Of a DNA stretch of 63,760 bases, positions 3,768 to 56,436 are shown piece by piece. The DNA comes from Paraspadella gotoi (taxonomy: Eukaryota; Animalia; Chaetognatha). A program made the translations under genes and the position numbers. The stretch is from contig CM119265.1 in the NCBI GenBank assembly GCA_051294375.1, positions 28,084,665 to 28,148,424 of the forward strand, written 5' to 3'. Each line of letters opens with the position of its first letter. Within the stretch, counting starts at the first letter, position 1. Below the pieces are notes generated by a model. The model was not told where the DNA came from and did no database searches. It worked only from the letters and a program-made list of their open reading frames with translations.

Positions 3768-3829
3768 GGAAGAGGAGGGGAAGGAGGAGGAAGGAGGAGG
3801 AAGACAAACGAGAAGAAATAAAGAAAGGA

Positions 3830-3887
<58 letters not shown>

Positions 3888-6450: not shown

Positions 6451-6599
6451 GAAATGATTAAAAGACCAGAAAGGGGAAAAGCGGAAGGTCACTGAGAGCT
6501 GGGTGAAAACTATTTCTGGATTAACAATAAAATATCCACCCTTCTAGTATCTATAATTGTAAAGATAGTGTACATAGTGGTTTTTCTTGCTATTTAAAT

Positions 6600-6830
6600 T
6601 CTTTAAAATATAATACTACTTCATTAATAGGGAAGCCAGGTACTCTGGGAGTGAATAAAGGAAAACTGTGAGGAGTCTTGATTGAAAGCTTGCAGGGACC
6701 TGCTGTGTCATAATCTTGTAAGAGTGATAGAGATTTTAAACAACCGTAGCCTGTCCAAAGTCAGGGTCAAAATAGATTATTTATTAAATGAATGGATACT
6801 TTTTCTATTTTTTGTACCAATTTCATAGGA
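6600..6830 (+). repeat. dispersed ~230-bp unclassified repeat (core GAGTGAATAAA...GTCTTGATTGAAAGCTTGC...CCAAAGTCAG...TGTACCAATTTCATA)
   Basis: Further copies or fragments near 4470-4610, 12050-12275, 17600-17830(-), 20240-20470, 27050-27300, 33710-33955 and 60620-60790(-). Confidence 0.8.
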
Positions 6831-6919
6831 GAGGGAATAAGATAAAAAAAAATAAGAAAAAAACTGAAAAGAAAAGAGAACATGGATGTGGAAGAATAGA
6901 TTACCTTTTGTACTTGCAA

Positions 6920-7365
6920 AGGGCAAAGGTATGGAAAGAGAAGGCAAAGGTTTGGGAAGAGATGGCAGAGTTATGAGAAGAAAGGGTAGAGGTATGGGAA
7001 GAAAGGGCAGAGGAAGGTAAAGAGAGGNNNNNNNNNNNNNNNNNNNNNNNNNNNNNNNNNNNNNNNNNNNNNNNNNNNNNNNNNNNNNNNNNNNNNNNNN
7101 NNNNNNNNNNNNNNNNNNNNNNNNNNNNNNNNNNNNNNNNNNNNNNNNNNNNNNNNNNNNNNNNNNNNNNNNNNNNNNNNNNNNNNNNNNAAGGGTAGAG
7201 GTATGGGAAGGTGGCAAAGGTGTGGAGAGAGATGGCAGAGGTGTGGGGAGAGATGGCAAAGGTGTGGGGAGAGATGGCAAAGGTGTGGAGAGAGATGGCA
7301 GAGGTGTGGGAGAGATGGCAAAGGTGTGGGAGAGATGGCAGAGGTGTGGGGAGAGATGGCAAAGG
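6920..7365. repeat. 21-bp minisatellite (GAGATGGCA(A/G)AGGTGTGGGGA)n spanning an N gap
   Basis: Tandem units on both sides of the gap at 7028-7190. Confidence 0.85.
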
Positions 7366-8251: not shown

Positions 8252-11200
8252 GGAGTCAGATTCAAAGAACAAAGGCGAAGATATGAAGCCAAAGACAAAA
8301 GCGAACAGAAGAACAAAGAACGAAAATGATCCAAACAAACAAAAAATCGTTAAAACCCGCCAGAGATTTTTTTTTCTCTCTCGGTTAACCGCGTAAAAAG
8401 AAGTTTATATAAAAAGGATTTGAATTAAAAATCCTAATATAAACTAAAGATGAACTCAACGAGAAAAGAGGAAAAGAAGTTTGAAATGTATTTAGCAGTA
8501 TTGTAGTAGCGGCCATCATTCTCTATTTTCATAATTTTAACATCTTTTTCGTTTCTTATTTATTCTTTCTCTCTTTTTCCTTTTTGTAAATCACTTTAGT
8601 AATTTACTTAACCCCTGAAATTGTACATTTTTTTTCAATTTTTTTTCCGTCTATATAACTTTGACTTCTTCCTAGGAGGATTTTTGTCTTAGTTTTTTTA
8701 CTATGAGCATTTTCCTTTTATTTTCTATAAAGATTTGCTCTTCTGTCTGCACTCACTAGATCTTCACTTGCATTGCTTTCCACAAAATTGCAAATTTTTA
8801 CATGTTTTGGTCTGAATAAACCAGAGGTCGGTACAAACAAAAAAGGATTTTAAAAACAAAATAGAAATAAAATTTAGTTTAAGTAAATCCACCAGAGGTT
8901 TAAATCTTTTTTTCTGAAATAAAAGAACAGTCCTATTAAATTTTCTTTGTGTTTTCACCCTATTCTACTGGAGGACTCTATAAAGAAAGAAGCTTTTTGT
9001 AATACAAACGGATATTAATAATAAACTTTAGCTGCACCCACTTGCACCTGCTCTTCAACAAAATATCAATTTTTCGAAAAAAAATTATTATTTTAAAATT
9101 TTTATTATTTGAAAATGTTTTAATAATTTTTTGTCTTATTCTATTTTATTTTATTCTCTTTCTTATTCTACGTATTGATTAAAGCATTTTAATCATATAT
9201 AATAATAAAAATGAGAATATGATAATAATATTATTTTGATTTATAAATTATTTTTGCAAGTAGCAAAATATTATTAATGCCGCAGTAACAGTTCCGTTTA
9301 AGCCCTTAAAAATGATTTACATATATTGGCGCAGCCACTGGTTCGTTTTGTATTCTTCCTCTCTCATCTTCTCTGTTTCCTTCACCGCCTCTTTGCCTAT
9401 CTTTCCCCTCTTTACTTTCTTTCCTCCCTCTCTCTCTTTGTCTCCCTCTCTTTTCCTACCTATCATCTTCCCTCTCTCTCTCTCTCTCTCTCAAAAAGAG
9501 AGAGATTTATTTAATTCGTTCAACAGAAATAAAGATGGAATCCACGATAGAAATTCCATATAATTTGTTTCGACTTGTTTTTATCTGTTAATTTTGTCTT
9601 TACTAAGTCGCATCAGTGAGCTTTCAGATAATTGAACTCTTTTCCCTTTTCGTCATTAAATCCATTATTTCTCTCTTCTCCCCAATTCTCCTTCTCCTCG
9701 CTCCCTTAANNNNNNNNNNNNNNNNNNNNNNNNNTCTCTTTTTTTCCTCCATTTCTCCTGACGCCATCTCGCGTCAGATATTTTTCCTTATCTCCCTCGC
9801 ATCAAAACAGAAAGATTTTTCTCCCATTATTCACCGCCCAGCGTAAGAGAGGGAAGGGACGGAGGACCGACCCGACGGACGGACCTTGGACGGACGGACG
9901 GACGACCGCCGACCGAACGGAACGACGCCGAGCGACGGACGGACGGAACCAACGATCGGCCAAATGTCACCCATTTTCCTTCCTATTCATTTTTTAAACG
10001 CTCACAATTTTTTTAGTCTTTCTAAATGCATTTTTATGAACTTTGTCTCTCTTAATCTTTGTCTTTATCTCTGTCCCTCAATATCACTCAGTGAAAGAAA
10101 CTTTGTCATTTACTCTTAATTTCTTTCGAAAATTTTAAAATTGAGAAAATCAAAGACAAAAAAAAATAGGAAAATAAAATTCTCTCCTCGACTTCCTGTG
10201 ATAAAAATCTTTCTCGATGATAAACTTTTTTTAAAAAAAGTTGTTTTTTATCAGTTCGAATTTTTATCAATGGCGCCCACCGACAAAGATTTCTCAAGAA
10301 GAAAAAAAAATAATAATCGTGATTTGTTATCTGTTTTTTTTAAAACAATGATTCACTACGAACTGTAGCTTCGAAATGTATAATTAGTAGATAAATAAAA
10401 TAAAAAATAAATTTAAGAAAAATACTTTTAAAAAAATGTTGAGTTTAAAATGGGAGGAACATCGTCGTCATCGTCGTGAATCGTCGTCGTTTTCTCTCCC
10501 GCCGGAAATCCTCGCTCGTCCGGCGCCGAGAGAACGAGGAGCGAAATCGGCGCCGATGAATTCCATCTCGCGGAAAACGTCGCTTCGGGATTCGATGACC
10601 GGGGATTTCTCGGTCGCTCTCTGCCGGACGAAACCGAAAAGGAAGAAGAGACGGAAACGCGACGGGTGATGGTGAAGACCGGAGAGGGCGGCGGCGGCGG
10701 AGGAGGCGGCGCGGCGGCGGCGGCGGCGCGGAGGGGCGGCGGGCGGAGGGCGGAAGCGGCGGCGATGTCTCGCAAAACAACGACGACAACTCCCAAAATC
10801 AGAACAACAACAACGAAGCGTCTGAACTAAAGACAAAACAAATTTCGTGATTTTTCCTTTGATTTTGATTCTAATCGTCGTTTGCGTCGGAGGCGTAAAG
10901 GTTGTTCTTGTTTTTGTTGTTGTTGTTCTTGTTATTATTCTTGTTTTTGTTGTTCTTGTTGTTGTTGTTTTGTTATGATTTTGTTAACTTCATTGTTATT
11001 AAATTTTGTTTGTTTTTTTAAAAAGTCGTTTTTATTTGTAATTACAGAAATAAAATTATTTTTTTCTTTGGGTTTCCTTTCGAAACAAAGAAAGATAATC
11101 ATCCCATTTTAATTTTTTTTGCTTAATCGAAAATCTATAAATTCAAAAAAAAGTTTTTCCCCACAAGAAAAAAAAATTTTCCCGCTGACTTTACGAAAAG

Positions 11201-11418
11201 CGAAACTTTTATCGATTATTTAATTCGTTCAACAGAAATAAAGATGGAATCCACGATAGAAATTCCATATAATTTGTTTCGACTTGTTTTATCTGTTAAT
11301 TTTGTCTTTACTAAGTCGCATCAGTGAGCTTTCAAGATATTGAAACTTCTTTCCCTTTTCGTCATTAAATCCAATTACTTCTCATTTCTCCTCCAATTTC
11401 CTTCTCCTCTCTCCTCAT

Positions 11419-15236: not shown

Positions 15237-15405
15237 ATCCACGAATGCATCCAGCGCCAACTCAAAGCCGACGTTCGACATCTTACGAACGAAGTGACGT
15301 GCCACGCCCCCGCCTACGCGCTCAGCGCCGCTATGACGACGGTTGCAGCGCCGGTCATCGCCGGAAATCGTCCTTGCGTCGCCGCCGTCCGTCAGGTGGG
15401 AGACG
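15237..15405 (+). CDS. exon A of unit gene (cleanest copy): IHECIQRQLKADVRHLTNEVTCHAPAYALSAAMTTVAAPVIAGNRPCVAAVRQVGD
   Basis: CT-rich tract + CCCAG acceptor; G|GTAATC donor; 169 nt (phase 0 to 1); non-low-complexity translation. Confidence 0.65.
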
Positions 15406-15570: not shown

Positions 15571-15642
15571 GGGCTCGTCCGGGAATCGAACCCGGGGCCT
15601 CTCGCACCCGAAGCGAGAATCATACCTCTAGACCAACGAGCC
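15571..15642 (-). tRNA. tRNA-Pro(CGG)
   Basis: Intact 72-nt cloverleaf GGCTCGTTGGTCTAGAGGTATGATTCTCGCTTCGGGTGCGAGAGGCCCCGGGTTCGATTCCCGGACGAGCCC with A box, B box and a downstream TTTT. Confidence 0.97.
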
Positions 15643-16524
15643 ATCTGACGTGGATTCAATGAAATTTATGCAACAAATATTAAGAAGTAAATCGTCAGTT
15701 AATATAAATAATCTTTTTTGTTTGAAGTTGGACTGGTTATGGTTGTTTCAGGCCTTACTCTTACAGTATATTAATATAGGGATATAAGGGAGTGGTCTTT
15801 TCATACAATAGTAACATTCTTTAAAACTTTATACCAATTTATTGATAGGGAAGNNNNNNNNNNCCATCTCGCGTCAGATATTTCTTCTTATCTTCCTCGC
15901 ATCAAAACAGAAGATTTTTCTCCCATTATTCACCGCCCAGCGTAAGAGAGGCAAGGGACGGACGGACCGACCGACTTACGGACGGACGGACGGACCGACC
16001 GACCGACCGACGGACGGACGAACCGAGCGACGGACGGACGGACCAACGATCGGCCAAATGTCACCCATTTTCCTTCCTATTCATTTTTTTAAAACGGTCA
16101 CAATTTTTTTAGTCTTTCTAATGTCATTTTATGAACTTTGTCTCTCTTAATCTTTGTCCTTTATCTCTGTCCCTCAATGTCACTCAGTGAAGAAACTTTG
16201 TCATTTACTCTTAATTTCTTTCGAAAATTTTAAAATTGAGAAAATCAAAGACAAAAAAAATAGGAAAATAAAATTCTCTCTCTCGACTTTCTGTGATAAA
16301 AATCTTTCTCGATGATAAACTTTTTTTTTAAAAAGTTGTTTTTTATCAGTTCGAATTTTTATCAATGGCGCCACCGACAAAGATTTCTCAAGAAGAAAAA
16401 AAAATAATAATCGTGAATTTGTTATCTGTTTTGTTTTTAACAATGATTCACTACGAACTGTAGCTTCGAAATGTATAATTAGNNNNNNNNNNAAATAAAA
16501 TTTAAGAAAAATACTTTTAAAAAA

Positions 16525-16928
16525 ATGTTGAGTTTAAATGGGAGGAACATCGTCGTCATCGTCGTGATCGTCGTCGTTTTCTCTCCGCCGGAAATCCTCG
16601 CTCGTCCGGCGCCGAGAGAACGAGGAGCGAAATCGGCGCCGATGAATTCCATCTCGCCGGAAAACGTCGCTTCGAAGGATTCGATGACCGGAGGATTTCT
16701 CGGTCGCTCTCTGCCGGACGAAAACCGGAAAGGAGAAGAGACGGAAACGCGACGGGTGATGGTGAAGACCGGAGAGGCGGCGGCGGCGGAGGAGGCGGCG
16801 GCGGCGGCGGCGGCGCGGCGGCGGAGGAGCGGCGGCGGCGGAAGAGGCGGAAGCGGCGGCGATGTCTCGCAAAACAACGACGACAACCACCAAAATCAGA
16901 ACAACAACAACGTAAGCGTCTGAACTAA
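16525..16928 (+). CDS. candidate small secreted Ala/Glu/Thr-rich protein (consensus needs indel correction)
   Basis: MLSLNGRNIVVIVVIVVVFSPPEILA-RPAP is signal-peptide-like, then EAAAAEEAAAA and, by consensus, MSRKTTTTTTKIRTTTTKRLN-stop. Other frames are also largely open, so the frame is uncertain. Confidence 0.4.
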
Positions 16929-17419
16929 AGACAAAAACAAATTTCGTGATTTTTCCTTTGATTTTGATTCTAATCGTCGTTTGCGTCGGAGGCGTTAAAG
17001 GTTGTTCTTGTTTTTGTTGTTGTTGTTCTTGTTATTATTCTTGTTTTTGTTGTTCTTGTTGTTGTTTTGTTTTGATTTTGTTAACTTCATTGTTATTAAT
17101 TTTGTTTTGTTTTTTAAAAAGTCGTTTTTATTTTGTAATTACAGAAATAAAATTATTTTTTCTTTTGGTTTCCTTTCGAAACAAAGAAAGATAATTCATC
17201 CATTTTATTTTTTTTGCTTAATCGAAAATCTATAAATTCAAAAAAAAAGTTTTTCCCCACAAGAAAAAAAAATTTTCCCCTGACTTACGGAAAGCGAAAC
17301 TTTTATCGATTATTTTAATTCGTTCAACAGAAATAAAGATGGAATCCACGATAGAAATTCCATATAATTTGTTTCGACTTGTTTTATCTTGTTANNNNNN
17401 NNNNNNNNNNNNNNNNNNN

Positions 17420-18270
17420 TTTATCTTCCTTGCCCTTTCTGCCCAGGTACCGTCTACCGCTTTCCCATAACTCTGCCATCTCTTGCCCAAAGACGGGCTT
17501 GCCTTCTCTTTTCCATACCCTGTGCCCTTTGCAAGTACAAAGGTAATCTATTCTTCCACCATCCATGTTCTTTCTTTATTTTTTTTTTTTTTTATCTTAT
17601 TCCCTCTCCTATAGAATTGGTAAAAAAAAATAGAACAAATATCATTCATTTTTAATAAATAATCTATTTTGGACCCTGACTTTGGACAGGCTATGGTGTG
17701 TTAAATCTCTATCACTCTTACAGATTATGACATCAGCAGGTCCCTGCAAGCTTTCAATCCAAGACTCTCTCACAGTCTCATTTATTCACTCCACGAGTAC
17801 ACTGGCTTCCCTATTAAGAAGTAGTATTATATTTTAAGTGAATTTTAAATAGCAAGAAAAAAACCACTATTACACTATCTTACAATTATAGATACTAGAA
17901 GGTGGATATTTTATTGTTAATCCAGAAAATAGTTTTTCAACCCGACTCTCAGCAACCCTTCCTTCCCCTTTCTGTTCTTTTCTTTCCCTTTTATCTAATT
18001 ATCCTCTCCCTTTATTCCTATCTCCTTTCCCATTTTCCTATTAACCTCCTTTTCTACTTCCTTTTTGCTATAATCCTGCTGTCCTATATCGGCCTCTTTT
18101 CTATTACTCCTTGAATTCATTAATCTCGTCCCTTTCGCCTTATTGCATCAGATTTCCATTTTTCCCGCATGAATCATAATCTTCCCTTTTTCCTATTAAT
18201 CCTGTCCCTCCTTTTTTCCTAACAGAAGTCCTCTCCTCTTGCTTTTTCCTAATTATCCTATCCCACCTTT
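17420..18270 (-). repeat. inverted noisy copy of block ~6150-7027
   Basis: CCCTTTGCAAGTACAAAGGTAATCTATTCTTCCAC and GATACTAGAAGGTGGATATTTTATTGTTAATCCAG are reverse complements of 6887-6923 and 6516-6551. Confidence 0.85.
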
Positions 18271-19660
18271 TCTATTGAATCGACCCTGGTCATGTTGTAT
18301 TTCTAATTCATCTCATGACCGTTTAGGAATTATTTCTTTCTCCAGTGTGTCGTCCTTCTCCTGCCTAAGGTCCCTTTTATCCTCGAATAACCGGAAAAAG
18401 GAAGAAGAGACTAGTGGACCCCCGCGACGTGGTTGCACCCTGATTTTGTGGAAGACGGTGAATTAATCTCACTCCCTGTTGCGCGGCCTGATAATCCGGT
18501 GCCCCGCCCCTGTAGTGTCTGTATTGCACCCGCCTAGCAGGCGGCGGCGGCGCAAGTGAGGCGGTCCCAACGTGCACCTGCCGCCCTTCCTGGCCCGGCG
18601 CTACTCCGCTCTCGTTTCAAACACACGACGCACAACCTTACCAAAATCAGCAACAAACCAACAACTAAGCGTTCGTACCTGAACGCTAAACGCACAAAAC
18701 AGTTGTAATTTCGCTGATGTTGGCTCTTTAAGATTGTGATGGTCTTTATGATCGCTCTGCGCCTTCTACAAAGTTTGTTTGTCTGTGGCGGAGGCGTAAA
18801 GTGTTGTTCTTGTTGTTTGTTGTTGTTGTTCTGTATAATATTCTTGTTATTTTGTTGTTTCTTGTTGTTGTTTTGTTTCATGATTTTGTTAACTTCATTG
18901 TAATTTAGTTTATTGTTGTTTTTGTTATTTAAATAGTGTCGTTTTGTATTTTGTAATGTACAGAATATAAATATTATATTATTTTTGTTCTTTTGGTTTG
19001 CTCTTTTTCGAAACAAAGTAAAGATAATTCATCATTAGTACCATGTTTTATTGTGATTTTGTGTTGGTGTCTTGGTATGTAGTCGAAAATCTTATAAGAC
19101 TTCGTGTAAATATAAAAAAAAAGTTGTTCCGTCCCCACACGAGTATAATAAAAACAATTTTCGTTGTTTTTCTTCCGGTCCGTATCCCGACGAGTAAAGC
19201 TAAGACGAAAATCAACCTGTACTACCTTACAGTTATTTCCTCTTTAAACCCGAAGTGAACGGCGAATCCAACTTTCTTATTCGATTGTCCTAATTATTTG
19301 AAATAATGGCTGAACTCAGATTTTCCGGCCTTTAAATTTCGAATAATTTAATTTTTTGAAGTTTTCTAACAGAAATTGTTAAAGATTGTTATGCCAACGA
19401 ATTTGAATGTACCAATTATAATTTGTTTATCGACTTGTTGTTGTATCTTTGTTAATTTTTCTTTACTAAGTCGCATCAGTGAGCTTTACAGTATATTGAA
19501 CTTTATCACTAGGTTCCCTTTCGGTCATTTAAATCCTAAATCTTTCATTTCTTTCACCAATATTCTCCTCTCTCGCTCTCCTCTCATCGTCTCTCTCTCG
19601 CTCTCTCTTCTCTCTCGTCTCTCTCTCTCCTCTCTCCTTCTTCCTCTCTCCCCATCCCAG

Positions 19661-19832
19661 ATCCACGAATGCATCCAGCCGCCAACTCAAAGCCCGACGT
19701 TCGACCATCTTACGAACGAAGTACGTGCCACCGCCCCCGCCACGCGCTCAGCGCCGCTAATGACGACGGTTGTACGCGCCGGTCATCGCCGGAAATCGTC
19801 TTGCGTCGCCGCCGTCCGTCAGGTGGGAGACG
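19661..19832 (+). CDS. exon A of unit gene (copy 2, with indels)
   Basis: Homolog of 15237-15405 with the same acceptor and donor. Confidence 0.55.
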
Positions 19833-20000
19833 GTAATCGAGGGGGGGGCTTGGTCTTGGTAGAAAACCGACATTATGGGTCTGACAATTCGGAGAATAAA
19901 AAAACGATTTTGTAAATGTTACATTGTGTGACATGTCTTTATGAATTTATGAGTACAAATGTATATATATTGTTTAGCTTAAAACAAAATAAAAGATTGA

Positions 20001-20072
20001 CGGCTCGTCCGGGATCGAACCCGGGGCCTCTCGCACCGAAGCGAGAAATCATACCTCTAGACCAACGAAGCC
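20001..20072 (-). tRNA. tRNA-Pro(CGG), copy 2
   Basis: Homolog of 15571-15642 with a few indels. Confidence 0.8.
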
Positions 20073-20611
20073 ATCTGATGGATTCAATGAAATTTATGCA
20101 ACAAATATAAGGAAGTAAATCGTCAGTTAATATAAATAATCTTTTTTGTTTGAAGTTGGACTGGTTATGGTTGTTTCAGCCTTACTCTTACAGATAATAT
20201 TAATATAGGGAATTAAGCGGAGGGTCTTTTCATACAATAGTAACATTCTTTTAAACTTTATTACCAACTTTATTTGATAGGGAAGCCAGGGTACTCTGAG
20301 AGGAATAAAAACGAGATGTGAGAGAGTCTTGATTGAAAGCTTGCAGGGACCTGTAAGAGTAATAGGGCCTTAAACCACCAAAGAATTTCCAAATGCAGGG
20401 GCAAGATAGCCCTTTTTGTTTATTAAATGAATGAGTAATTTTTACATTTGTTGTACCAATTTCATAAGTAACCTGCGTTGAAAATCTTTCAATCAAGATT
20501 CTCTCACTGTTTTTAGTGAGTTAACTGCCAGATCCAACTCTGTGGATGAAGTTGCATAGTATTGTTAAAGTGATTAAACGCATATTGTCGCATTGATTTT
20601 AAAAAAAGTAT

Positions 20612-20683
20612 GGGCCCGTCCGGGAGTCGAACCCGGGACCTCTCGCACCCAAAGCGAGAATCATACCGCTAGACCAACGAGCC
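20612..20683 (-). tRNA. tRNA-Pro(TGG)
   Basis: Intact 72 nt GGCTCGTTGGTCTAGCGGTATGATTCTCGCTTTGGGTGCGAGAGGTCCCGGGTTCGACTCCCGGACGGGCCC followed by a T7 run. Confidence 0.95.
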
Positions 20684-20757
20684 GTTACATAAGTTCATAC
20701 ATAATTACATTTATTAATTTTTTTCTGCGATGTATTGCTTTCTGAGCTTTTTTTTTT

Positions 20758-20802
<45 letters not shown>

Positions 20803-20837
20803 TCTCTCCTCTCTCTCTCTTCCTCCTCTCTTTCCAG

Positions 20838-21848
20838 CGGCGACGGACAACTGGTCGAGCGAAGAGGCCGATCTATATTCGATCGACAGCGACGACTTCA
20901 GCGTTGATTTACTTTTTTTGGACAAAAGAGCATCAGGGTATTTGGAGGAAGAAAAAAGGGCATCATGGCATTTGGATGAGGATAAAAAGGTGTCACCTCA
21001 TTTGGATGTCAGCAGAAGGGCATCACGGCATTCACAAGTCAGTAGAAAAGCATCACGGCATTCACAAGTTGAAAAAAGGGCATCGCGGCATTTTCAGGAA
21101 GAGAAAAGGGCATCGCGGGATCTGGAAGAAGACGATACTTCATCTGAAATTTGTGAAGAAGATAAAAGAACATCTATGGATAAATCTCGTGGATCTTGTG
21201 ATAAATTTCGTGATAAATCTCGTGATAGATCTTCAACTCGATCTTTGAATCGAAAACGATCGAGGATCGAACAGAAGAAGAGGAAGAGGAAGAGAAGTAG
21301 GAAGAAGACGATGGACATGGCGGTCGAGGCGGATCTTGGGGCGGAGAAGGAGAAGGGGAGGAAAGAGGAAGTAGAGGAGGAGGAGAAGGGGAGGAAGGAG
21401 GAAGGCGAGAAGGAGGAGGAGAAACGGAATACCGAAGGAGTGGAAGAGGAAGTGAGAGAACAGGGAGGTGTGGAAATGAATCCGGGAAAGATGGAGAATG
21501 GTTTGACGATTGAAATTGAATCGAATGTCGAAGGGAGAGACAATTCGATCAAGGATACGAACGTAAAAAACAAATCTAGTGAAAAACGAATAAATAAAGA
21601 ACATAAATGTAAAACTGCTCATGATAATATAAAAAACAAAAACTACGACGTTCGAAATAAAAGAGGTGCGTCGATGACATTGAGGGACGATAAAAACATC
21701 GAGAAAATCGGAGGAAAAGACAAAGGGCGGGAAATTCGAGAGAAGAAAAGAGGAGAATCGTTCGACGAACAAAGATGGAGAATTTTGGGTGAAGAAGCGA
21801 AGTTGAGGAAAATGAGGGGACGAACGTCGGACGAAAAAAACGAAACAC
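20838..21848 (+). CDS. exon B of unit gene: charged protein segment with 10-aa (K/R)(R/K)ASxH repeats, basic cluster and Glu-rich tract
   Basis: TTTCCAG acceptor and C|GTGGGA donor; 1011 nt, stop-free (ORF 20735-21949), phase 1 to 1. Confidence 0.8.
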
Positions 21849-21856
21849 GTGGGATT

Positions 21857-21892
<36 letters not shown>

Positions 21893-22075
21893 NNNNNNNN
21901 NNNNNNNNNNNNNNNNNTCACATTACAATCCAACACAACAATCAATTAATTATTAATTGATTAATCAATCAATCCAATCAATCAAATGATTGATAATAGA
22001 TCATTCAATCAATCAATCGAATTAATGAATATAATCGTTTAATCGATCAATCAATCAATAATCACCTTTTTTCAG

Positions 22076-22195
22076 CGTCTCGCAAAACCAGCGCCTCCTC
22101 CATCCGAAGCGAACGACGAGGAAGCAAAATGCGTCGAACAGCCAAAGAATTTTCGGGGAATTTCGTACACATTCCAGGGGGAGGGAGAGAGAGAG

Positions 22196-22235
<40 letters not shown>

Positions 22236-22550
22236 GAAAGGAAAATCTTGCCCAATTTCTCTCTCATCAACTCGGACAGAAAAATCTCCGTCTTGGCAAA
22301 ATCCTTGGAAATCGCTCCTCAGTCACGGAGACGATCCCTCACTGGTTCACGCCTCGACCCAGCTGGACGCTTTTGGTCCGGAGACAGGTGCCGGACAGGT
22401 GCCGACAGTGCCGACGACATCTCCGCCGTTCCATCGTCGTGTTGAGAGAGTTTTTCATCGAGTTTTGAACTTCGCCTTTTGGAAGAAGAAGAAGAGGAAG
22501 AAAGAGGGAGGAAGAGAGGGAAGGGAAGTTCAGACCGAGGCTGGAAGTAG
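22076..22550 (+). CDS. exon C of unit gene (PSRKTSASSIRSERRGSKMRRTAKEFSGNF...RVFHRVLNFAFWKKKK...EAGS)
   Basis: TTTTTTCAG acceptor and AG|GTAAGT donor; 475 nt; the frame predicted from exon B equals the open ORF 22129-22554. Confidence 0.7.
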
Positions 22551-22686
22551 GTAAGTGATTGTTTGGAGGTGAGGGTCGGATTTGGTATATATAACGCGGG
22601 ATGGTTGAGTGTGTTGTGGGGAACAAATAGAATTTGTTTGTACTTCACTTCGTTTTACTTTTTACTGATGGTAAAAATAATATTAA

Positions 22687-22753
22687 GGGCTCGTCCGGGA
22701 ATGAACCGGACCTTCGCACCCTAAGCGAGAATCATCCTCTAGACCAACGAACT
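22687..22753 (-). tRNA. tRNA-Pro(AGG), copy 2 (deletions)
   Basis: CTCGC-TT-AGG-GT-GCGA anticodon arm retained. Confidence 0.7.
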
Positions 22754-22766
22754 TTTCTTCCTTCAG

Positions 22767-22908
22767 GTTCATCACCTACCATCCGACCAAGAGACTCGCT
22801 GACGAAGAAGACGACACGACGATGACGACGAAGAGAAAAACGAATTTTAAATGACAACACAACAACGACAACAACGACGCCATTTTAGACAAAGAGTTGA
22901 AAGTTCAG
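22767..22908 (+). CDS. exon D of unit gene (RFITYHPTKRLADEEDD...NDAILDKELKVQ)
   Basis: CCTTCAG acceptor with phase 2 matching exon C; CAG|GTTATA donor. Internal indels must be corrected using other copies. Confidence 0.6.
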
Positions 22909-23050
22909 GTTATAATAAAAAACACTTTTTGTAAATTTGTGGTTGAAATTTATTTAAGCTGATCAGTATTTTATAATAAAATGTAAAATAAACGTGGAAA
23001 CTTGGTGGACACAATTGATTTGTATTAAAATATTTACAATTATTTACACG

Positions 23051-23152
23051 AAACAAACGACGAGAAAAAATGTCAAAAATTCATCAGCGAAGAAAAAGAC
23101 GAAAAGAAAAAGATGAAGAAATCTGGAAAAAACATCGAAGATTTCAGAAAAA
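23051..23152 (+). CDS. exon E of unit gene (consensus KQIDEKMSKFISEEKTKRKDEEIWKNxEDFRK)
   Basis: TTTACAG acceptor is clear in the copies at 14828 and 24057; GTAAA donor; translation is from a cross-copy consensus. Confidence 0.55.
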
Positions 23153-23169
23153 GTAAAATAATTTAAACT

Positions 23170-23240
23170 GGGCTCGTCCGGGAGTCGAACCGGGACCTCT
23201 CGCACCCGAAGGGAGAATCATACCACTAGACCAACGAGCC
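23170..23240 (-). tRNA. tRNA-Pro(CGG) variant (anticodon stem CTCCC/GCGAG)
   Basis: GGCTCGTTGGTCTAGTGGTATGATTCTCCC-TT-CGG-GT-GCGAG...GGTTCGACTCCCGGACGAGCCC. Confidence 0.85.
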
Positions 23241-23285
23241 AGAGTTAGAGGAAGAGGCTGACTTATTTTCTCCTCCTCTCTCTCT

Positions 23286-23326
<41 letters not shown>

Positions 23327-23330
23327 CCAG

Positions 23331-23592
23331 GACGCAGTCTCCCTCCTTCTTTCGCTTCTTCCTTCAATTCATCCACGAAGAAGATTTTTCCCAAATGCGA
23401 TCTGCGTTTGCATCGGAATGCGATCAGAGACGCCGAATGCGAGCGAAGGAGCAAAGGAAGATGCGAGCAAAGACGGTGGAGAGGCGACGAGGGTGGTGAG
23501 AGACTGACGACAACGACGACGACAACAACAACACGACGACGACGACGAAAAAAACGAAAATTGGAAATGCTTCATGTGAGAGAAGATAAATG
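23331..23592 (+). CDS. exon F of unit gene (consensus DAVSVLLSLLPSIHPRRRFF...RMRSETPNASEGAKEDASKDGGEATRV...LETLHVREDN)
   Basis: (CT)n + CCCAG acceptor and G|GTAGGT donor; the 3' part is cleaner in ORF 30551-30799. Confidence 0.55.
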
Positions 23593-26500
23593 GTAGGTTG
23601 AAAAAAAAGAGGAAAGAAAGAAAAGAAAAAGAAAGAAGAAAGAAAGAAAGAAGAAAGAAGAAAAAAAGAAGGAAAACGAAACGAAAACAAATAACGAAAA
23701 AACAAAGATAGAAAAAAAGAAAAAGAAAAAAAAAAAAACAATCAAAATTATATAAACTACCAATCCCTAGCACGATCGAGCAAAAACTAACCTATTAACT
23801 TAATGATAATTATAATTTATTATTAAAATAATAAATTAAACTAATAATAAATTAATAATTAATAATATTTATTAATTAATAATTAATAATATATCTTAAC
23901 TTATTTAATAAAATCATTTATAATTTAAAAAATCCTCTCTCTAGGGGGGGTTTGAAATTTATTTAAGCTTGTACGTATTTTTATAATAAAATGTAAAATA
24001 AACGTGGAAACTGGGTGGACAATTGATTGTATTAAATTATTTAACTATTATTTACAGAAACAAATCGACGAGAAAAATGTCAAAAANNNNNNNNNNNNNN
24101 NNNNNNNNNNNATCGTAGAAGCATATTTAATCGTAAACTATAAATAATAAAAATGAACGGGAAATAGATAATAATCATTATTTAGCATTTTATAAATTAT
24201 TTTTGCCATTTAGTGCAAAATATTTATTAAGTGCCGCCGTAGTAACAGTTCTCGTTAAGCCCTTAAAAATGATATTTACATATATTAGGCGGCGAGCCAC
24301 TGGTTCTTTTTGTATTCTTCCTCCTCTCATCTCTCTAATTCCGTTCACCCCCTTTCATGCCTATCTTTCCCCTCTTTACTTTCTTTTTCTTCGCCTCTCT
24401 CTATATTGTCTCCCTCGTCTTTTACCTAACCATATACAATCTTCACTCTTCTCTCTCTTCCTCTGTATATCTCTCTGTCTCTCTCTCTCTCTCTCTTTTT
24501 TTCCTCATTTCTCCCGTTGACGCCATTCTCGGCGTCAGATATTTCTTTCTATCTTCCTCGCCATCAAAACACGAAGATTTCTTTCTCCCATTAATTCACC
24601 GCCCAGCGTAAGAGAGGGAAGGGACGGACTGGACCGACCGACGGACGGACGGCACGGACGGACGGAACCGACCGACCCGACCGACCGACGGACGAGAACC
24701 GAGCGACGGACGGACGGTACCAACGATCGGCCAAATGCTCACCCCATTTTCCTTCCTAATTCATTTTTTTAAACGCGTCACAATTTTTTAGTCGTTTCTA
24801 ATGTCATTTTAATGAACTTCTGTCTCTCTTCAATTTTGCCTTTATCTCTTGTCCTCAATAATCACTCAGTTGAAGAAACTTTTTGTCAGTTTTCTTCTAA
24901 AATTTCTTCTGAAAATTTTAAATTGAGAAATCAAATAGACAAGAAAAAAAAATAGGAAAATAAAATTCTCTCTCTTCGAATCTTTCTAGTGATAAAAATC
25001 TTATACTAGCGATTGATAACTTTTTTAAAAAGTTGTTTTTATCAGCTTCGAATTTAATCAATGAGCGCCACCGACAAGTATTTCTCAAGAAGCAAAAAAA
25101 ACAATAATAATCTGCTGAATTTCGTTATCTGTTTTTTTTTAACAATGATTCACTACGAAAACTGTACTTCGAAATGTATAATTAGTTAGTAAAAAAAAAA
25201 AATAATATTTAAGAAACAATACTTTTTTAAAAAATACAGTCATGTTGCAGTTTAAATGCGGAGGAAAACTCGTCGTTCATCGTACGTGATCGTTCGTCGC
25301 TTTCTCTCCGCCGAAAATCCTCGCTCGCTCCGGCTCCGCCGGAGAGAACGCAGCGAGCGAAATCGGCGGCCGATGAATTCCATCTCGCCGCGAAAACGTC
25401 GCTTTCGCCGGATTTCGATGACGGAGCGATTTCGTCGTCGCTCTCTGCCGGACGAAACTCCGGCACAAAAGGAAGAAGAGACGAAATCGCGGACGGCGGG
25501 TGATGGTGAAGACCCGGAGCAAGGCGGCGGGCGGCGGATGGAGGCGGCGGAGCAGGCGCGGCGGCAGGCGATGCGGCGGAAAGGAGGCGGCAGGCGGACA
25601 CGCGCAAGGAGGCGGAAGCGCTCTCTCGCATGTCTTCGCAAAACAACGAACGACAACCACCAAAATCAGAACAAACAAACAACGAAGCGCCATCTCGAAC
25701 TAAAGACAAAAACAAAATTTCGTGATTTTTCTTCCTTGATTTTGATTCTAATCCGTTCGGTTTAGCGTCGGAGGCACGTAAAGGTTGTCTTCGTTTTTTT
25801 GTTGTGGTTGCTTCTTGTATCTATTTCTGTTTTTTGAGTTGTTCATTCGTTGTTGTTTTGTTTATGATTTGTTAAAACGAACTCTCCACAATTTTTTTGA
25901 GTTATTAATTTTGTTTATGTTTTTTTTAAAAGTCGTTTTTATTCTTGTAATTACAGAAAATTAAAATTATTTTTTCCTTTGGTTTCCTTTCGAAACCAAG
26001 AAAGATCTATAATCATCATTTTAATTTTTTTTGCTTAATCGAAAATCTATAAAATTCCAAAAAAAAAAGCTTTTTCCCACAAGAAAAAAAAATATTCCAC
26101 TGATTCTACGGAAAAGGCCGACAACTTTTACGATTAATTTTTAATTCGTTCAACAGAAATCAAAGATGCGAATCCACGAATAAGTAGAAATTCACATATA
26201 ATTTGTTTCGACTTGTTTTATCTGTTAATTTATAGTCGTTTACTAAGTCGCATCAGTGAGCCTTTTCAGATGTTTATTGAACTTCTTTCCTTTTCGTCAT
26301 TAAATCCTATTAAATTCGTTCATATGCTCTCCCCCAATTCTCCTTCTCTCCTCTCTTCTTCTCTCTCTGCTCTCTCTCTCTCTCTCCCTTCTGCTCTCTC
26401 CTCCATCTCCAGATCCACGAATGCATCCAGCGCCAACTCAAAGCCGATCGTTCGACATCTTAACGATACGAAAGTGAAGTGACGTTGCCACGCCCCCGCC

Positions 26501-26784
26501 TACGCGCTCAGCGCCGCTATTTTGACGACGGCTTTAATGCACGCGCCGGTCATCGCCGGAAATCTAGTCCTTGCGCTTCGCCGCCGTCCGTCAGTGGAGA
26601 CGGCTAATCGAGGGGGGGGCTTGTTGGCTAGAAAAACCGGACATTATGTGCGGTCTGACATTCGGCAGAATATAAAAAACCGATTTTTGAAATGTTACAT
26701 TGTGACATTCGTCTTTATGTGAAATTATGAGTACAAATCGATATATATATTGTTTAGCTTTAAAACAAAAATACAAAGATTTGA

Positions 26785-26860
26785 GGGCTCGTCCGGGATA
26801 TCGAACTCGGGGCCTCTCGCACCCGAAGTCGAGAATCTCACTCTAGAAACCAACGAAGCC
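26785..26860 (-). tRNA. tRNA-Pro(CGG), noisy copy 3
   Basis: Homolog of 15571-15642 with many indels. Confidence 0.55.
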
Positions 26861-27449
26861 ATCTGACGTGGATTCAAATGAAATTTATGCAACAAACTAT
26901 TAGACAGTAAATCGTCATGTTAATATAAAAATAATCTTTATTTGTTTGAAGTTTGCGACTGGTGTATGCCGTTGATTTCAGGCGCTTACTACTTACAGTA
27001 TAATATTAAGTATAGGGATATATAAAGGATCGGTCTTTATTCAGTACAATAAGTAACATTCTTTTAAAACTTGACAACTATACCCAATTTATTGATTAGG
27101 GAAGCCAGCTGGGTACTTCTGAGAGTGAATAAACGAGATTGTTGAGAGAGTCTATGTATTGAAAGCTTGCAGGGACTGTAAGAGCTAATAGGCGGCCTTA
27201 AACACCAAAGGAGATTTCCAAAGTCAGGCGGCAAAGATTAGCTTGTTTATTTAAATGATAAAATGAAGTAATTTATACATTATGTGTACAATTCATAAGT
27301 AACTGCGTTGAAAATCTATTCAATCAAGATTCTCTTCACATGTTTTAGTGAGTTAAACTCCAGATCCAACTTGTGGAGATGAAGTTGCATAGTATTGTTA
27401 AGTGAAATTTAAACCATATTGTCGCATTGAATGGTTAAAAAAAAGTATT

Positions 27450-27524
27450 GGGCTCGTCCGGCAGTCAACCCGGGACCTCTCGCACCCAAAGCGCGAGAAA
27501 TCATACGCTAGAACCAAACGAGCC
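27450..27524 (-). tRNA. tRNA-Pro(TGG), noisy copy 3
   Basis: Homolog of 20612-20683. Confidence 0.55.
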
Positions 27525-27601
27525 GTACTTACAATAAGCTTCATACATTCATAATTATAATTTTTTATTCTCGCATTATTGCTTTTCTGAGCCTTTTTTT
27601 T

Positions 27602-27637
<36 letters not shown>

Positions 27638-29740
27638 AGGCAGCGACGTACATAATCTGTCTGTGCAGCAAAGAGGCCGATCTATATTCGATTCGACACG
27701 AACGTACTTAGAGCCGTTGATTTTACTTTTTCTTGAGCACAAACCAAGCTAGACATCAGGTATTTGGGAGGAAGAAAATGGCATCATGGCATTTGGCATG
27801 AGGATAAAAACCTGGTGTCACCTCAATTTTGCGATGTCAGCAGAATGGGCATCACTGCCTTCACAAGTCAGTAGAAAAAGCATCATCAGCATTCACAAGT
27901 TGAAAAAGGCGGCATGCTGCGATTTTCAGAAGAGATAAAAGGCGCCATTCGCGCGGATCCTGGTGAAGAAGACCGATACTTCATCTAAATTGCTTGTGAG
28001 AAGATAATAAAAGAGACATCTATGGATAAATCGCCTGTGGATCTTGCTTGATTAAATTCTCGCTGATAATAATCTCGTGATAGATCTTCAACCGATTCTT
28101 TAGAATTCGGAAAACAGATTGAGGACGAACAGAAGAAGAGGAAGAGGAGAGAAGAGTAGGAAGAAGACGATGGCGACATTTGCGCGCGGTCGAGGGCGGA
28201 ATCTTGCGGGCGCAGAAGGTAGAAGGGGAGAAGAGAAGCTAGACGTGTAGGGAGGAGAAGGGCAGGAAGGAGGAGAAGGCGAGAAGGATAAGGAGCGAGA
28301 AACGGTAAATAGCGAAGGAGCTGGAAGAGGAAGCCTGACGAAACAGGGAATGTGTGGATAATAGAATACCCGCGGAAAGATGGAGAAATGGTTTGGACGA
28401 TTGAAATTTGACACGAATGCGAAGTGAGCAGACAATTCGAATCAAGGGATACGAACGTATATAGAAAAAACAAATCTAAATCAGTGAAAAAACGAATAAA
28501 TAAAGAAACCATAAATGTAAAATGCTCTCATAGATTAATATAAAAGAACAAAAACTACGACGTGTTCGCAAATAAAAGAGGTGCGGATCGATGACATTGA
28601 AGACGATAAAATCATCGAAGAAAATCGGAGGAAAAGACAAAGGGCGGGGTAAATCTCGATGAGAAGGAAAGCAGGAGAAATCCGTTCGCATATACGAACA
28701 AAGATTGGAGAATTTTGGGTGCAAGAAAGCGAGAAAGTGAGGAAAAATCGACGGGCGACGAACGTGTCGGAACGAAAAAAACTAAACACAGTGCGCGTTA
28801 ATTCAATCAATCAATCAATCAATCATCAAAACAATCAATTCAATAAATCAATCATGCACATCAACCAATTCAATTAATTATTAATTGAATTAATCAATCA
28901 ATCAATTCAATTGACATCACAAACATCGATAGTTTTACATTAGCATCTAATCAATCATCAAATCAATTTGAGATCAATACAATTCAATCTAATCATGAAT
29001 GATTCGCTTTAATCGATCAATCAATACAAGTCAATCACCTTTTTTCTAGCGTTCTCGCCAAAACCAGCGCCTCCCTCCATCCGCAGCGAACGACGAGGAA
29101 GCAAAAATCGAGTCGAACAGCCAAGCAACTTTTCGGCGGCGATTTACGTTACACATTCCAGGAGAGGGAGGCGACGAGAGAACTGAGAGAGAGAAGAAGA
29201 GAGAGCAGAGGAGAGAATGATGAAGCATGGAATGCAGAGGAAATGAAAGGAAATCTTGCCCAATTTTCTCTGCTCATCACCTCGGACAGAAAATCTCACG
29301 TCTTGGCAAACTATCCTTGAATCGTCTCCTCAGTCACGGAGACCGACAACTCTCTCACCTGAGTTCACGCCTCCGACACCACTGGACGCCGTTTTGGTCG
29401 TCGCGAGACAGGTTGCCGGGAACAGCGTGCCGGAACATGTGCCGACGACATCTCCCGTATCCAATCGTCCGATGTTGAGAGAGATTTCTTCATTCGAGAT
29501 TTTTGACTTCGCCTTTTCGAGAAGAAGAAAGAAGAGAAGAAGAGGGGAAGATGAGAGGAGTGAAGTCTCAACCCGAGGCTGGAAGTAGATGTAAGTAGAT
29601 TGTTACTGAGTCGTGCAGGCGTCGCATTTGGCTTATAATATAACGCGTGTGGTTGAGTGTGTTTGGGGTAACAAATAGAATTTGTTTGTACTTACACTTG
29701 TACGTTTACTATTTACTGATGAGTAAAAATAAATACTTAA

Positions 29741-30463: not shown

Positions 30464-33440
30464 CCAGGACGAGGCAGTCTCCGTCCTTCTTTCGCTTCTT
30501 CCTTCAATTCCATCCACGAAGAAGATTCTTTTCCAAAATGCGATCTGCGTTTGCATCGGATGCGATCAGAGACGCCGAATGCGAGCGAAGGAGCGAAGGA
30601 AGATGCGAGCAAAGACGGTGGAGAGGCGACGAGGGTGGAAGTCGACGACGACGACAACGACGACGACGACGACGACGAAAAAAGCGAAGAATTGGAAACG
30701 CTTCATGTCAGAGAAGATAATGGTAGGTTAAAGAAAAAAAAANNNNNNNNNNNNNNNNNNNNNNNNNATCGTAGAAGCATATTTAATCGTAAACTATAAA
30801 TAATAAAAATGAACGGGAAATAGATAATAATCATTATTTAGCATTTTATAAATTATTTTTGCCATTTAGTGCAAAATATTTATTAAGTGCCGCCGTAGTA
30901 ACAGTTCTCGTTAAGCCCTTAAAAATGATATTTACATATATTAGGCGGCGAGCCACTGGTTCTTTTTGTATTCTTCCTCCTCTCATCTCTCTAATTCCGT
31001 TCACCCCCTTTCATGCCTATCTTTCCCCTCTTTACTTTCTTTTTCTTCGCCTCTCTCTATATTGTCTCCCTCGTCTTTTACCTAACCATATACAATCTTC
31101 ACTCTTCTCTCTCTTCCTCTGTATATCTCTCTGTCTCTCTCTCTCTCTCTCTTTTTTTCCTCATTTCTCCCGTTGACGCCATTCTCGGCGTCAGATATTT
31201 CTTTCTATCTTCCTCGCCATCAAAACACGAAGATTTCTTTCTCCCATTAATTCACCGCCCAGCGTAAGAGAGGGAAGGGACGGACTGGACCGACCGACGG
31301 ACGGACGGCACGGACGGACGGAACCGACCGACCCGACCGACCGACGGACGAGAACCGAGCGACGGACGGACGGTACCAACGATCGGCCAAATGCTCACCC
31401 CATTTTCCTTCCTAATTCATTTTTTTAAACGCGTCACAATTTTTTAGTCGTTTCTAATGTCATTTTAATGAACTTCTGTCTCTCTTCAATTTTGCCTTTA
31501 TCTCTTGTCCTCAATAATCACTCAGTTGAAGAAACTTTTTGTCAGTTTTCTTCTAAAATTTCTTCTGAAAATTTTAAATTGAGAAATCAAATAGACAAGA
31601 AAAAAAAATAGGAAAATAAAATTCTCTCTCTTCGAATCTTTCTAGTGATAAAAATCTTATACTAGCGATTGATAACTTTTTTAAAAAGTTGTTTTTATCA
31701 GCTTCGAATTTAATCAATGAGCGCCACCGACAAGTATTTCTCAAGAAGCAAAAAAAACAATAATAATCTGCTGAATTTCGTTATCTGTTTTTTTTTAACA
31801 ATGATTCACTACGAAAACTGTACTTCGAAATGTATAATTAGTTAGTAAAAAAAAAAAATAATATTTAAGAAACAATACTTTTTTAAAAAATACAGTCATG
31901 TTGCAGTTTAAATGCGGAGGAAAACTCGTCGTTCATCGTACGTGATCGTTCGTCGCTTTCTCTCCGCCGAAAATCCTCGCTCGCTCCGGCTCCGCCGGAG
32001 AGAACGCAGCGAGCGAAATCGGCGGCCGATGAATTCCATCTCGCCGCGAAAACGTCGCTTTCGCCGGATTTCGATGACGGAGCGATTTCGTCGTCGCTCT
32101 CTGCCGGACGAAACTCCGGCACAAAAGGAAGAAGAGACGAAATCGCGGACGGCGGGTGATGGTGAAGACCCGGAGCAAGGCGGCGGGCGGCGGATGGAGG
32201 CGGCGGAGCAGGCGCGGCGGCAGGCGATGCGGCGGAAAGGAGGCGGCAGGCGGACACGCGCAAGGAGGCGGAAGCGCTCTCTCGCATGTCTTCGCAAAAC
32301 AACGAACGACAACCACCAAAATCAGAACAAACAAACAACGAAGCGCCATCTCGAACTAAAGACAAAAACAAAATTTCGTGATTTTTCTTCCTTGATTTTG
32401 ATTCTAATCCGTTCGGTTTAGCGTCGGAGGCACGTAAAGGTTGTCTTCGTTTTTTTGTTGTGGTTGCTTCTTGTATCTATTTCTGTTTTTTGAGTTGTTC
32501 ATTCGTTGTTGTTTTGTTTATGATTTGTTAAAACGAACTCTCCACAATTTTTTTGAGTTATTAATTTTGTTTATGTTTTTTTTAAAAGTCGTTTTTATTC
32601 TTGTAATTACAGAAAATTAAAATTATTTTTTCCTTTGGTTTCCTTTCGAAACCAAGAAAGATCTATAATCATCATTTTAATTTTTTTTGCTTAATCGAAA
32701 ATCTATAAAATTCCAAAAAAAAAAGCTTTTTCCCACAAGAAAAAAAAATATTCCACTGATTCTACGGAAAAGGCCGACAACTTTTACGATTAATTTTTAA
32801 TTCGTTCAACAGAAATCAAAGATGCGAATCCACGAATAAGTAGAAATTCACATATAATTTGTTTCGACTTGTTTTATCTGTTAATTTATAGTCGTTTACT
32901 AAGTCGCATCAGTGAGCCTTTTCAGATGTTTATTGAACTTCTTTCCTTTTCGTCATTAAATCCTATTAAATTCGTTCATATGCTCTCCCCCAATTCTCCT
33001 TCTCTCCTCTCTTCTTCTCTCTCTGCTCTCTCTCTCTCTCTCCCTTCTGCTCTCTCCTCCATCTCCAGATCCACGAATGCATCCAGCGCCAACTCAAAGC
33101 CGATCGTTCGACATCTTAACGATACGAAAGTGAAGTGACGTTGCCACGCCCCCGCCTACGCGCTCAGCGCCGCTATTTTGACGACGGCTTTAATGCACGC
33201 GCCGGTCATCGCCGGAAATCTAGTCCTTGCGCTTCGCCGCCGTCCGTCAGTGGAGACGGCTAATCGAGGGGGGGGCTTGTTGGCTAGAAAAACCGGACAT
33301 TATGTGCGGTCTGACATTCGGCAGAATATAAAAAACCGATTTTTGAAATGTTACATTGTGACATTCGTCTTTATGTGAAATTATGAGTACAAATCGATAT
33401 ATATATTGTTTAGCTTTAAAACAAAAATACAAAGATTTGA

Positions 33441-33516
33441 GGGCTCGTCCGGGATATCGAACTCGGGGCCTCTCGCACCCGAAGTCGAGAATCTCACTCT
33501 AGAAACCAACGAAGCC
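33441..33516 (-). tRNA. tRNA-Pro(CGG), noisy copy 4
   Basis: Identical to 26785-26860. Confidence 0.5.
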
Positions 33517-34105
33517 ATCTGACGTGGATTCAAATGAAATTTATGCAACAAACTATTAGACAGTAAATCGTCATGTTAATATAAAAATAATCTTTATTTG
33601 TTTGAAGTTTGCGACTGGTGTATGCCGTTGATTTCAGGCGCTTACTACTTACAGTATAATATTAAGTATAGGGATATATAAAGGATCGGTCTTTATTCAG
33701 TACAATAAGTAACATTCTTTTAAAACTTGACAACTATACCCAATTTATTGATTAGGGAAGCCAGCTGGGTACTTCTGAGAGTGAATAAACGAGATTGTTG
33801 AGAGAGTCTATGTATTGAAAGCTTGCAGGGACTGTAAGAGCTAATAGGCGGCCTTAAACACCAAAGGAGATTTCCAAAGTCAGGCGGCAAAGATTAGCTT
33901 GTTTATTTAAATGATAAAATGAAGTAATTTATACATTATGTGTACAATTCATAAGTAACTGCGTTGAAAATCTATTCAATCAAGATTCTCTTCACATGTT
34001 TTAGTGAGTTAAACTCCAGATCCAACTTGTGGAGATGAAGTTGCATAGTATTGTTAAGTGAAATTTAAACCATATTGTCGCATTGAATGGTTAAAAAAAA
34101 GTATT

Positions 34106-34180
34106 GGGCTCGTCCGGCAGTCAACCCGGGACCTCTCGCACCCAAAGCGCGAGAAATCATACGCTAGAACCAAACGAGCC
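34106..34180 (-). tRNA. tRNA-Pro(TGG), noisy copy 4
   Basis: Identical to 27450-27524. Confidence 0.5.
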
Positions 34181-34257
34181 GTACTTACAATAAGCTTCAT
34201 ACATTCATAATTATAATTTTTTATTCTCGCATTATTGCTTTTCTGAGCCTTTTTTTT

Positions 34258-34293
<36 letters not shown>

Positions 34294-56351: not shown

Positions 56352-56353
56352 TG

Positions 56354-56436
<83 letters not shown>

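Follow-up and report, generated by a model that had tools for sequence, protein, structure and literature searches.

The window analyzed here is a 63,760-nt stretch of contig CM119265.1 of the chaetognath Paraspadella gotoi. Four tRNA-Pro genes, T1 to T4, lie on its minus strand between exon-like blocks of the plus strand. ARAGORN placed them at 20001-20071, 20612-20683 (TGG), 22687-22753 (AGG) and 23170-23240 (CGG). T1, a tRNA-Pro(CGG), is a noisy copy and was labelled '???' by ARAGORN because of its indels; a clean 72-nt copy lies at 15571-15642. The window contains 17 tRNA-Pro copies (16 called plus one more that was aligned) because a unit of about 7 kb has been assembled about four times. 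When the redundant copies were merged into column-majority versions, ARAGORN called these Pro-CGG, -TGG, -AGG and -CGG (4/4). The Rfam RF00005 gathering score was reached by 3/4 of the tRNAs, with the gene at 22687 falling below it. A T-run of at least four was found within 30 nt 3' in 14/15 tRNA copies examined. T1 has an oligo-T run of 4 at 7 nt 3', and T2 has a T7-9 terminator 5-6 nt 3' of the gene. The calls, the majority versions and the oligo-T terminators together uphold the initial annotation, which had placed four minus-strand tRNA-Pro genes here. Two further ARAGORN calls, an Arg(TCG) at 11816 and a Thr(GGT) at 12419, proved to be copies of the CGG and TGG genes that contain errors, and the accompanying claim of no other tRNA isotype therefore stands.

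The tRNA bodies are 60-67/72 identical in pairwise comparison. The anticodon stem is paired in the cleanest copies of T1, T2 and T3. T4 is a variant whose anticodon stem shows a C·C mismatch in 3/4 copies, the fourth being too noisy, and its acceptor stem possibly carries a second mismatch. Judged from its sequence, T4 is likely drifting toward a pseudogene. T3 and T4 lie unusually close to splice sites (13-17 nt). Candidate exon D has its AG 13-15 nt from the 5' end of T3, and the first T-run of T4 overlaps the donor at the end of candidate exon E.

The exon-like blocks are all on the plus strand. Exon A (19661-19822) has two open frames and the donor CAG/GT at 19822/19823; a clean copy of 159 nt lies at 15237-15395. 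Exon B (20838-21848) contains a 337-codon open frame. Candidate exons C (22076-22550, with the donor GTAAGT), D (22767-22908), E (23051-23152) and F (23331-23592) follow. A GTAGGT donor ends exon F, and the gene therefore likely continues. AG and GT motifs at the exon edges recur across the less noisy copies of the unit, and exons A, B and F have strong pyrimidine tracts ahead of their acceptors. The copy at 23051 lacks the AG in front of exon E, a motif that 2/3 copies matched do have. The tRNAs are flanked by GT-AG boundaries, and the host frame is open; the frames of exons C-F are uncertain because of indels in every copy. The GT-AG boundaries first proposed are present as motifs in the cleaner copies, except that the donor of exon A had been put at 19832, and contig evidence supports 19822/19823. 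The upstream block would become exon 1 if a GTAAGC donor at 16913 were genuine. This donor was discarded, since neither of the other two independent copies has its T and each of the four runs has contigs that align straight over 16913. A plus-strand, animal-type host gene around the tRNAs is likely, and it is likely an expressed, fast-evolving gene of low complexity.

Exon B is stop-free over its 337 codons, and any stop-free frame was found in 0/2000 base shuffles. The predicted product is rich in E, K, R, S and D, contains seven KRAS-like motifs in 10-residue repeats, and includes proline at 2/337 residues. The 30-nt repeats in the exon keep the frame. No homolog was found at E<=0.001 among 7,988 candidates scored (185-590 aa) or at E<=0.01 among 7,980 longer candidates. 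Two weak matches (E 1.7e-7 and 3.7e-5) were discarded as unrelated short-period repeat proteins. An Atlas search gave no usable match for exon B, and its scores for exon A all stayed below 0.8. Pfam gave nothing at cut-off for 12 translations, and the metagenome contigs searched held no corresponding locus.

Contigs of the runs were aligned over 16300-20600 only. Run X7 is RNA by the tool's guess; no record lists it as RNA, and it may be DNA. An X7 contig of 1,580 nt matches 19706-19823 only, ending one base past the CAG at the GT. DNA contigs of X1 and X4 cross the exon A donor into T1, reaching 20037 and 20014, respectively. The partner exon of the X7 contig lies outside 16300-20600, so the contig shows the departure from the donor and no complete junction. 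The predicted length of the exon A part plus B and C is 1,605 nt, against 1,580 nt for the contig. A fraction of 0.42 of the words in 19661-21850 is present in X7; exon B could supply 0.45 and exon A 0.06. X10 and X11, from other organisms, contain next to none of these words. The X7 contig supports a donor at 19822/19823, upstream of T1. X7 gives no cover in bins 19900-20187, 20476-20600 and 17164-17595, which are mostly covered by the DNA runs, an absence that proves nothing.

The initial annotation had proposed one tRNA per occupied intron, given a mini-exon between T1 and T2. The letters of this candidate (20532-20569, plus strand) are exact, showing 0 differences from the two DNA contigs that span it, and its exon status is unsupported. 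An open phase-1-to-0 segment of this kind arose in 490/500 shuffles of the interval, and none of the pieces listed for the long X7 contig falls there. The uncovered X7 bin 20476-20600 includes the mini-exon, and this gap was not counted as evidence. With the mini-exon no better than chance, a single tRNA in each intron is unproven. A layout of 2+1+1 tRNAs in three introns is more likely.

The 3' flanks of all four tRNAs are unrelated. In 11/12 flank comparisons the similarity was no better than that of shuffles, and the twelfth is explained by CT repeats in both flanks. The flanks share no homology beyond this CT microsatellite, and a repeated exon-intron-tRNA module is therefore excluded. Of the suggestion that tRNA-Pro duplicated into successive introns, local duplication survives as the simplest origin. 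For the other suggestion, a coupling of Pol III and Pol II transcription, the analysis gave no specific sign. A high-copy dispersed repeat fragment lies between T1 and T2 (20240-20467); it has no tRNA head, and other copies of it are found in the window at 6598-6827, 17615-17847 and 60620-60751.

The explanation that we consider probable is that antisense tRNA-Pro genes with their own terminators lie between exon-like blocks of a likely expressed gene, that they descend from an old local duplication, and that the repetition of the locus is an artefact. One tRNA-Pro would have been duplicated locally long ago, and anticodon changes would then have produced the four genes. Pol III would transcribe each tRNA by itself from its internal promoter boxes, stopping at the T-run behind it, and splicing of the host pre-mRNA would remove the antisense copies. 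The local duplication is likely of a kind common in compact genomes. In C. elegans 264/608 tRNAs are nested, in 229 arrangements within 204 hosts (PMC3342880), and 56% of nested tRNAs are reported as sense, leaving 44% antisense (PMC4999229). Retention in the same introns is roughly 50% in nematodes. Among Drosophila 1-kb tRNA clusters 49/71 are described as homogeneous in identity, and anticodon shifts are documented (PMC2997554). In plants, proline accounts for 166/220 of the reported tandem tRNA pairs with the same amino acid and different codons (PMC12652284).

The foremost alternative, which we regard as unlikely, is a selected regulatory unit, in which head-on Pol III throttles the host or the host promoter licenses a complete Pro decoding set in one tissue. 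All three Pro anticodons are present and all genes are antisense, T3 abuts an acceptor, and the T4 terminator overlaps a donor. There is precedent in an antisense Pol III MIR, for which a change in Polr3e protein of about 1.5-fold downward is reported (PMC5358760), and in intronic tRNAs of C. elegans described as affected by host promoters (PMC4999229). However, duplication alone yields a shared orientation and isotype, exon B has hardly any Pro codons to decode, and one of the tRNA copies is structurally defective.

Somewhat less probable still is a genuine tandem array of the unit of about 7 kb (the gene with its four tRNAs), which would make it an amplified tRNA-Pro cassette. About four assembled copies of the unit lie at 9195-37800, and most of its parts occur 4-5 times in the window. 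Contigs of the unit have 1.21, 1.35 and 1.53 times the depth of other-locus contigs, which were assumed to be single copy; this is somewhat above the comparison set, depth giving no copy number, and X1 has two variant contigs at 20142-20255. The ratio is nevertheless far below 4. Two copies are identical over 4,801 nt, errors included, while otherwise the copies show numerous indel differences, as is usual for raw long reads. Whole-unit global MAFFT alignment was too poor for error rates, and only this exact-identity count was used. The unit ends at N-gaps or within a CT repeat, with overlapping fills next to the gaps, and the gap-free head-to-tail junctions and raised copy number of a tandem tDNA array were not found in the window. 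In 3/3 DNA runs, contigs pass directly from 17389 to 19456 and leave out a 2-kb insert (17390-19455), which consists of an inverted copy of 6142-7021 together with a copy of the upstream block that is very noisy. Long-read gap-closing tools leave 25-N spacers, and gaps of 25 N flank the redundant copies here.

The fourfold repetition is thus likely long-read over-filling of gaps at a locus of one or two copies. For PBJelly, two-sided gap extensions that overlap and stay unmerged, and a read error of about 15%, are described (PMC3504050). The overlapping fills beside 25-N gaps resemble such over-filled gaps. This assembly most likely multiplies loci by gap filling, and caution is needed with its copy numbers.

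A fuller version of selection is improbable to a further degree. It would have a complete Pro decoding cassette wired into the splice signals. Some isoform would include the mini-exon, so that each intron had a single tRNA; the antisense tRNA-Pro(AGG) would contain the branch point of intron C-D, and the tRNA-Pro(CGG) terminator would double as the end of exon E. Host splicing or output would be tuned by Pol III traffic, and host transcription would gate the three Pro isoacceptors together.

It is very unlikely that there is no true host gene, with the exons being accidental or defunct frames in repeat-rich DNA and the tRNAs forming an intergenic cluster. Such a reading would account for the missing Pfam family and credible homolog, and the nature of X7 leaves room for it. 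It does not fit the long open frame with its frame-preserving repeats, the pyrimidine tracts before three acceptors, or the contig that departs at a GT donor where the DNA contigs do not. The last reading, that the tRNA-like sequences are SINE heads and the repeat between T1 and T2 a SINE body, had been named in advance as what would overturn the annotation, and is largely refuted and hardly credible: a very high-copy repeat does lie 145 nt downstream of T2 and a 36-nt tRNA-Pro 3' fragment at 51953, but the genes are complete cloverleaves with terminators directly 3' and unrelated flanks in place of a shared body or tail, depth is ordinary in 3/3 DNA runs over the stretch from T2 to the repeat, and the three other repeat copies in the window have no adjacent tRNA.

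Most likely, then, the locus is one more nested tRNA cluster, of little importance. Should the tight overlap of tRNAs and splice signals prove conserved and functional, the locus would offer a compact natural system for testing effects of intronic Pol III on host splicing or output. A thin search of the open-licence literature gave no Pro cluster in consecutive introns; the supplementary tables of PMC3342880 and PMC4999229 may hold equivalents.

Like the Polr3e MIR (PMC5358760), the tRNAs would be Pol III units antisense in a Pol II intron, and head-on interference is physically possible. The MIR is a SINE, whereas these are tRNA genes; mammal-wide conservation, ChIP occupancy and a deletion phenotype are reported for the MIR. 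Near copies of one isotype with different anticodons also occur in the Drosophila clusters (PMC2997554) and plant tRNA-Pro pairs (PMC12652284); unlike those clusters as described, the copies here are split by exon-like blocks and have lost flank similarity. A further close parallel is to the nested tRNAs of C. elegans, which are reported as autonomous genes within introns, in either orientation and with several per intron or host. In contrast to these, all four genes at this locus share one isotype, cover all three of its anticodons, and sit in an orphan host.

The initial annotation had placed four tRNA-Pro genes on the minus strand, and ARAGORN found minus-strand tRNA genes at all four positions: 20001 (T1, CGG), 20612 (T2, TGG), 22687 (T3, AGG) and 23170 (T4, variant CGG). 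The 20001 copy was labelled '???' because of indels, and 3/4 of the genes passed the Rfam threshold. BLAST, using two clean copies as query, identified 16 full tRNA-Pro copies in the window plus one 36-nt fragment, and a seventeenth copy was identified by eye at 29742. Flanking sequence grouped the copies into four genes, and the majority versions of T1 to T4 were all Pro (4/4) with the expected anticodons CGG, TGG, AGG and CGG. Their sequence looks to be of animal type. A downstream T-run (within 30 nt) was found in 14/15 copies examined. The T4 anticodon stem has a C·C mismatch in 3/4 copies, and its acceptor stem perhaps has a second mismatch. The fragment is a lone 3' tRNA-Pro end on the minus strand (51953-51988) adjoining a long CT repeat.

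The four tRNA bodies share 60-67/72 positions pairwise. Flank comparisons were no better than shuffles in 11/12 cases, and the sole match above shuffles, between the 5' flanks of T2 and T4, was a CT repeat on both sides. The flanks being unrelated, T1 to T4 are probably old duplicates, without a common flanking module. T1 to T4 are not SINE heads. A dispersed repeat (∼20240-20467; copies measure about 230-280 nt) exceeds the local baseline by a factor of thousands in summed depth in the three DNA runs, but it lies 145 nt past the T2 terminator with ordinary-depth DNA between, and its three other window copies (6598-6827, 17615-17847 and 60620-60751) have no tRNA beside them. Repeat copies differ by internal deletions, and depth was very high in all four runs aligned. 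Elsewhere, an open frame at 41796-42578 has a weak, sub-threshold DUF5641 match (E 0.0033) and, from the DUF5641 association, is probably an LTR-retrotransposon remnant.

Exon B of the putative plus-strand host gene (20838-21848) is a 337-codon open frame; 0/2000 base shuffles gave a stop-free frame on either strand. Its translation is E/K/R/S/D-rich, with just 2 prolines, and contains KRAS-like 10-residue repeats. Coding repeats of 30 nt (20924-21132) encode dibasic KRAS/RRAS motifs at regular intervals; these motifs may serve as kinase or processing sites. Family and protein homology searches with exon B returned no family and no credible homolog. Nine sequencing runs, all from a single organism and drawn from three studies, contained the stretch 19661-21850. 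X7, a run guessed to be RNA, contained 0.42 of the words in this stretch, near the 0.45 that exon B alone could supply.

Contigs were aligned to 16300-20600 only. A 1,580-nt X7 contig aligned over its first 118 letters at 19706-19823, and the remainder had no match in that interval; contigs of the DNA runs X1 and X4 continued past 19823, to 20037 and 20014. CAG/GT lies at 19822/19823 and is present in 3/5 matched copies, the remaining two being one noisy duplicated read. The exon A donor annotated at 19832 is thus unsupported. The single extra matched G, one base, fits an exon B start at GCA (2/3 independent copies), which would give a phase-0 in-frame join with exon A. Part of exon A plus exon B and candidate exon C would total 1,605 nt, close to the contig's length, with the partner exon outside the aligned stretch. 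A candidate first-exon donor lies near 15941.

The letters of the mini-exon candidate (20532-20569) held up, as two DNA contigs span it without differences; its status as an exon did not. Placed between exon A, read in its second open frame, and exon B, it allows a phase 1 to phase 0 chain, and it is the sole such segment in the real interval. Shuffled intervals yielded a mean of 6.3 such segments, with at least one in 490/500, and the phase fit therefore carries no weight as evidence. Only one piece of the 1,580-nt X7 contig is listed, and it does not fall on the mini-exon. The earlier arrangement of one tRNA per intron depended on this segment and is unsupported. The likeliest layout has T1 and T2 within one intron and T3 and T4 each in their own; an isoform including the mini-exon could still exist.

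Each tRNA would act as an autonomous Pol III unit, while host transcription would pass through on the opposite strand and splicing would remove the tRNAs. Local duplication would account for the single isotype and orientation, and single-base shifts in near-identical bodies for the three anticodons. T3 and T4 are packed against splice sites more closely than is usual. T3 starts 13-15 nt from the candidate exon D acceptor; given the usual branch-point spacing, the C-D branch point would therefore fall within the antisense tRNA. The T-run of T4 overlaps the candidate exon E donor. Such crowding is expected in short introns, and nothing in the data points to selection on it.

The window is eukaryotic DNA rich in microsatellites and N-gaps, including gaps of 25 nt at 9710, 17395, 21893, 24087 and 30743. 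About four copies of the ∼7 kb unit holding the locus occupy 9.2-37.8 kb at 80-95% identity with many indels. Two copies (24112-28912 and 30768-35568) are identical, errors included, over 4,801 nt. Units end at N-gaps or within CT repeat, and short overlapping fills adjoin gaps (9493-9709 repeats 11216-11414; 23940-24086 repeats 22943-23079). An insert at 17420-19455 comprises an inverted copy of 6142-7021 and a very noisy version of the upstream block. In X1, X2 and X4, contigs join 17389 straight to 19456.

For three DNA runs, unit depth was taken per contig (4, 5 and 5 values), adding together the two variant contigs of X1 and excluding any contig that falls on the dispersed repeat or insert. 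These depths were compared with those of contigs from other loci (13, 14 and 9 non-zero values among the 15 rows listed, with 31 further rows unlisted and the unit's row excluded). Among the contigs listed the ratios were 1.21, 1.35 and 1.53, which are only indicative and fit 1-2 unit copies, not 4. The fourfold repetition is likely an assembly artefact, and its pattern matches the 'over-filled' gaps reported when gaps are closed with long reads (PMC3504050). Further indel-rich redundant copies stand beside 25-N gaps (53212-56247 and 56280-60566; 443-852 and 3772-4197), so over-filling probably extends across the entire scaffold. About 53600-55700 is taken up by a 30-nt minisatellite.

The upstream block (16368-17163), ∼430 nt upstream of exon A with the insert removed, is covered by X7 contigs and recurs near 10300-11050 and 25100-25960. 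Its plus strand holds a frame of roughly 190 codons without introns, starting with the ATG at 16525. The predicted product is hydrophobic at its N-terminus and over a long C-terminal stretch and includes a Gly run; AATAAA follows near 17147. The block may represent a small membrane-protein gene of its own; the first 69 residues had no Pfam match.

A selected proline decoding set tied to host splice signals, with Pol III and host transcription affecting each other, is very improbable. The tRNA-Pro cluster within putative host-gene introns is a real but ordinary feature. Our literature search found no description of a Pro set in consecutive introns. According to published surveys, 264/608 C. elegans tRNAs are nested, in 229 arrangements with 204 hosts, and 52% of these are retained in C. 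briggsae (PMC3342880); a second survey gives 47% intronic, 56% of those sense, with expression influenced by host promoters (PMC4999229). In Drosophila 49/71 clusters of 1 kb are uniform in tRNA identity, and the annotation includes 16 anticodon shifts (PMC2997554). In plants proline makes up 166/220 tandem pairs of the same amino acid and different codon (PMC12652284). Antisense Pol III interference has been demonstrated at Polr3e, where the effect was 1.5-fold (PMC5358760).
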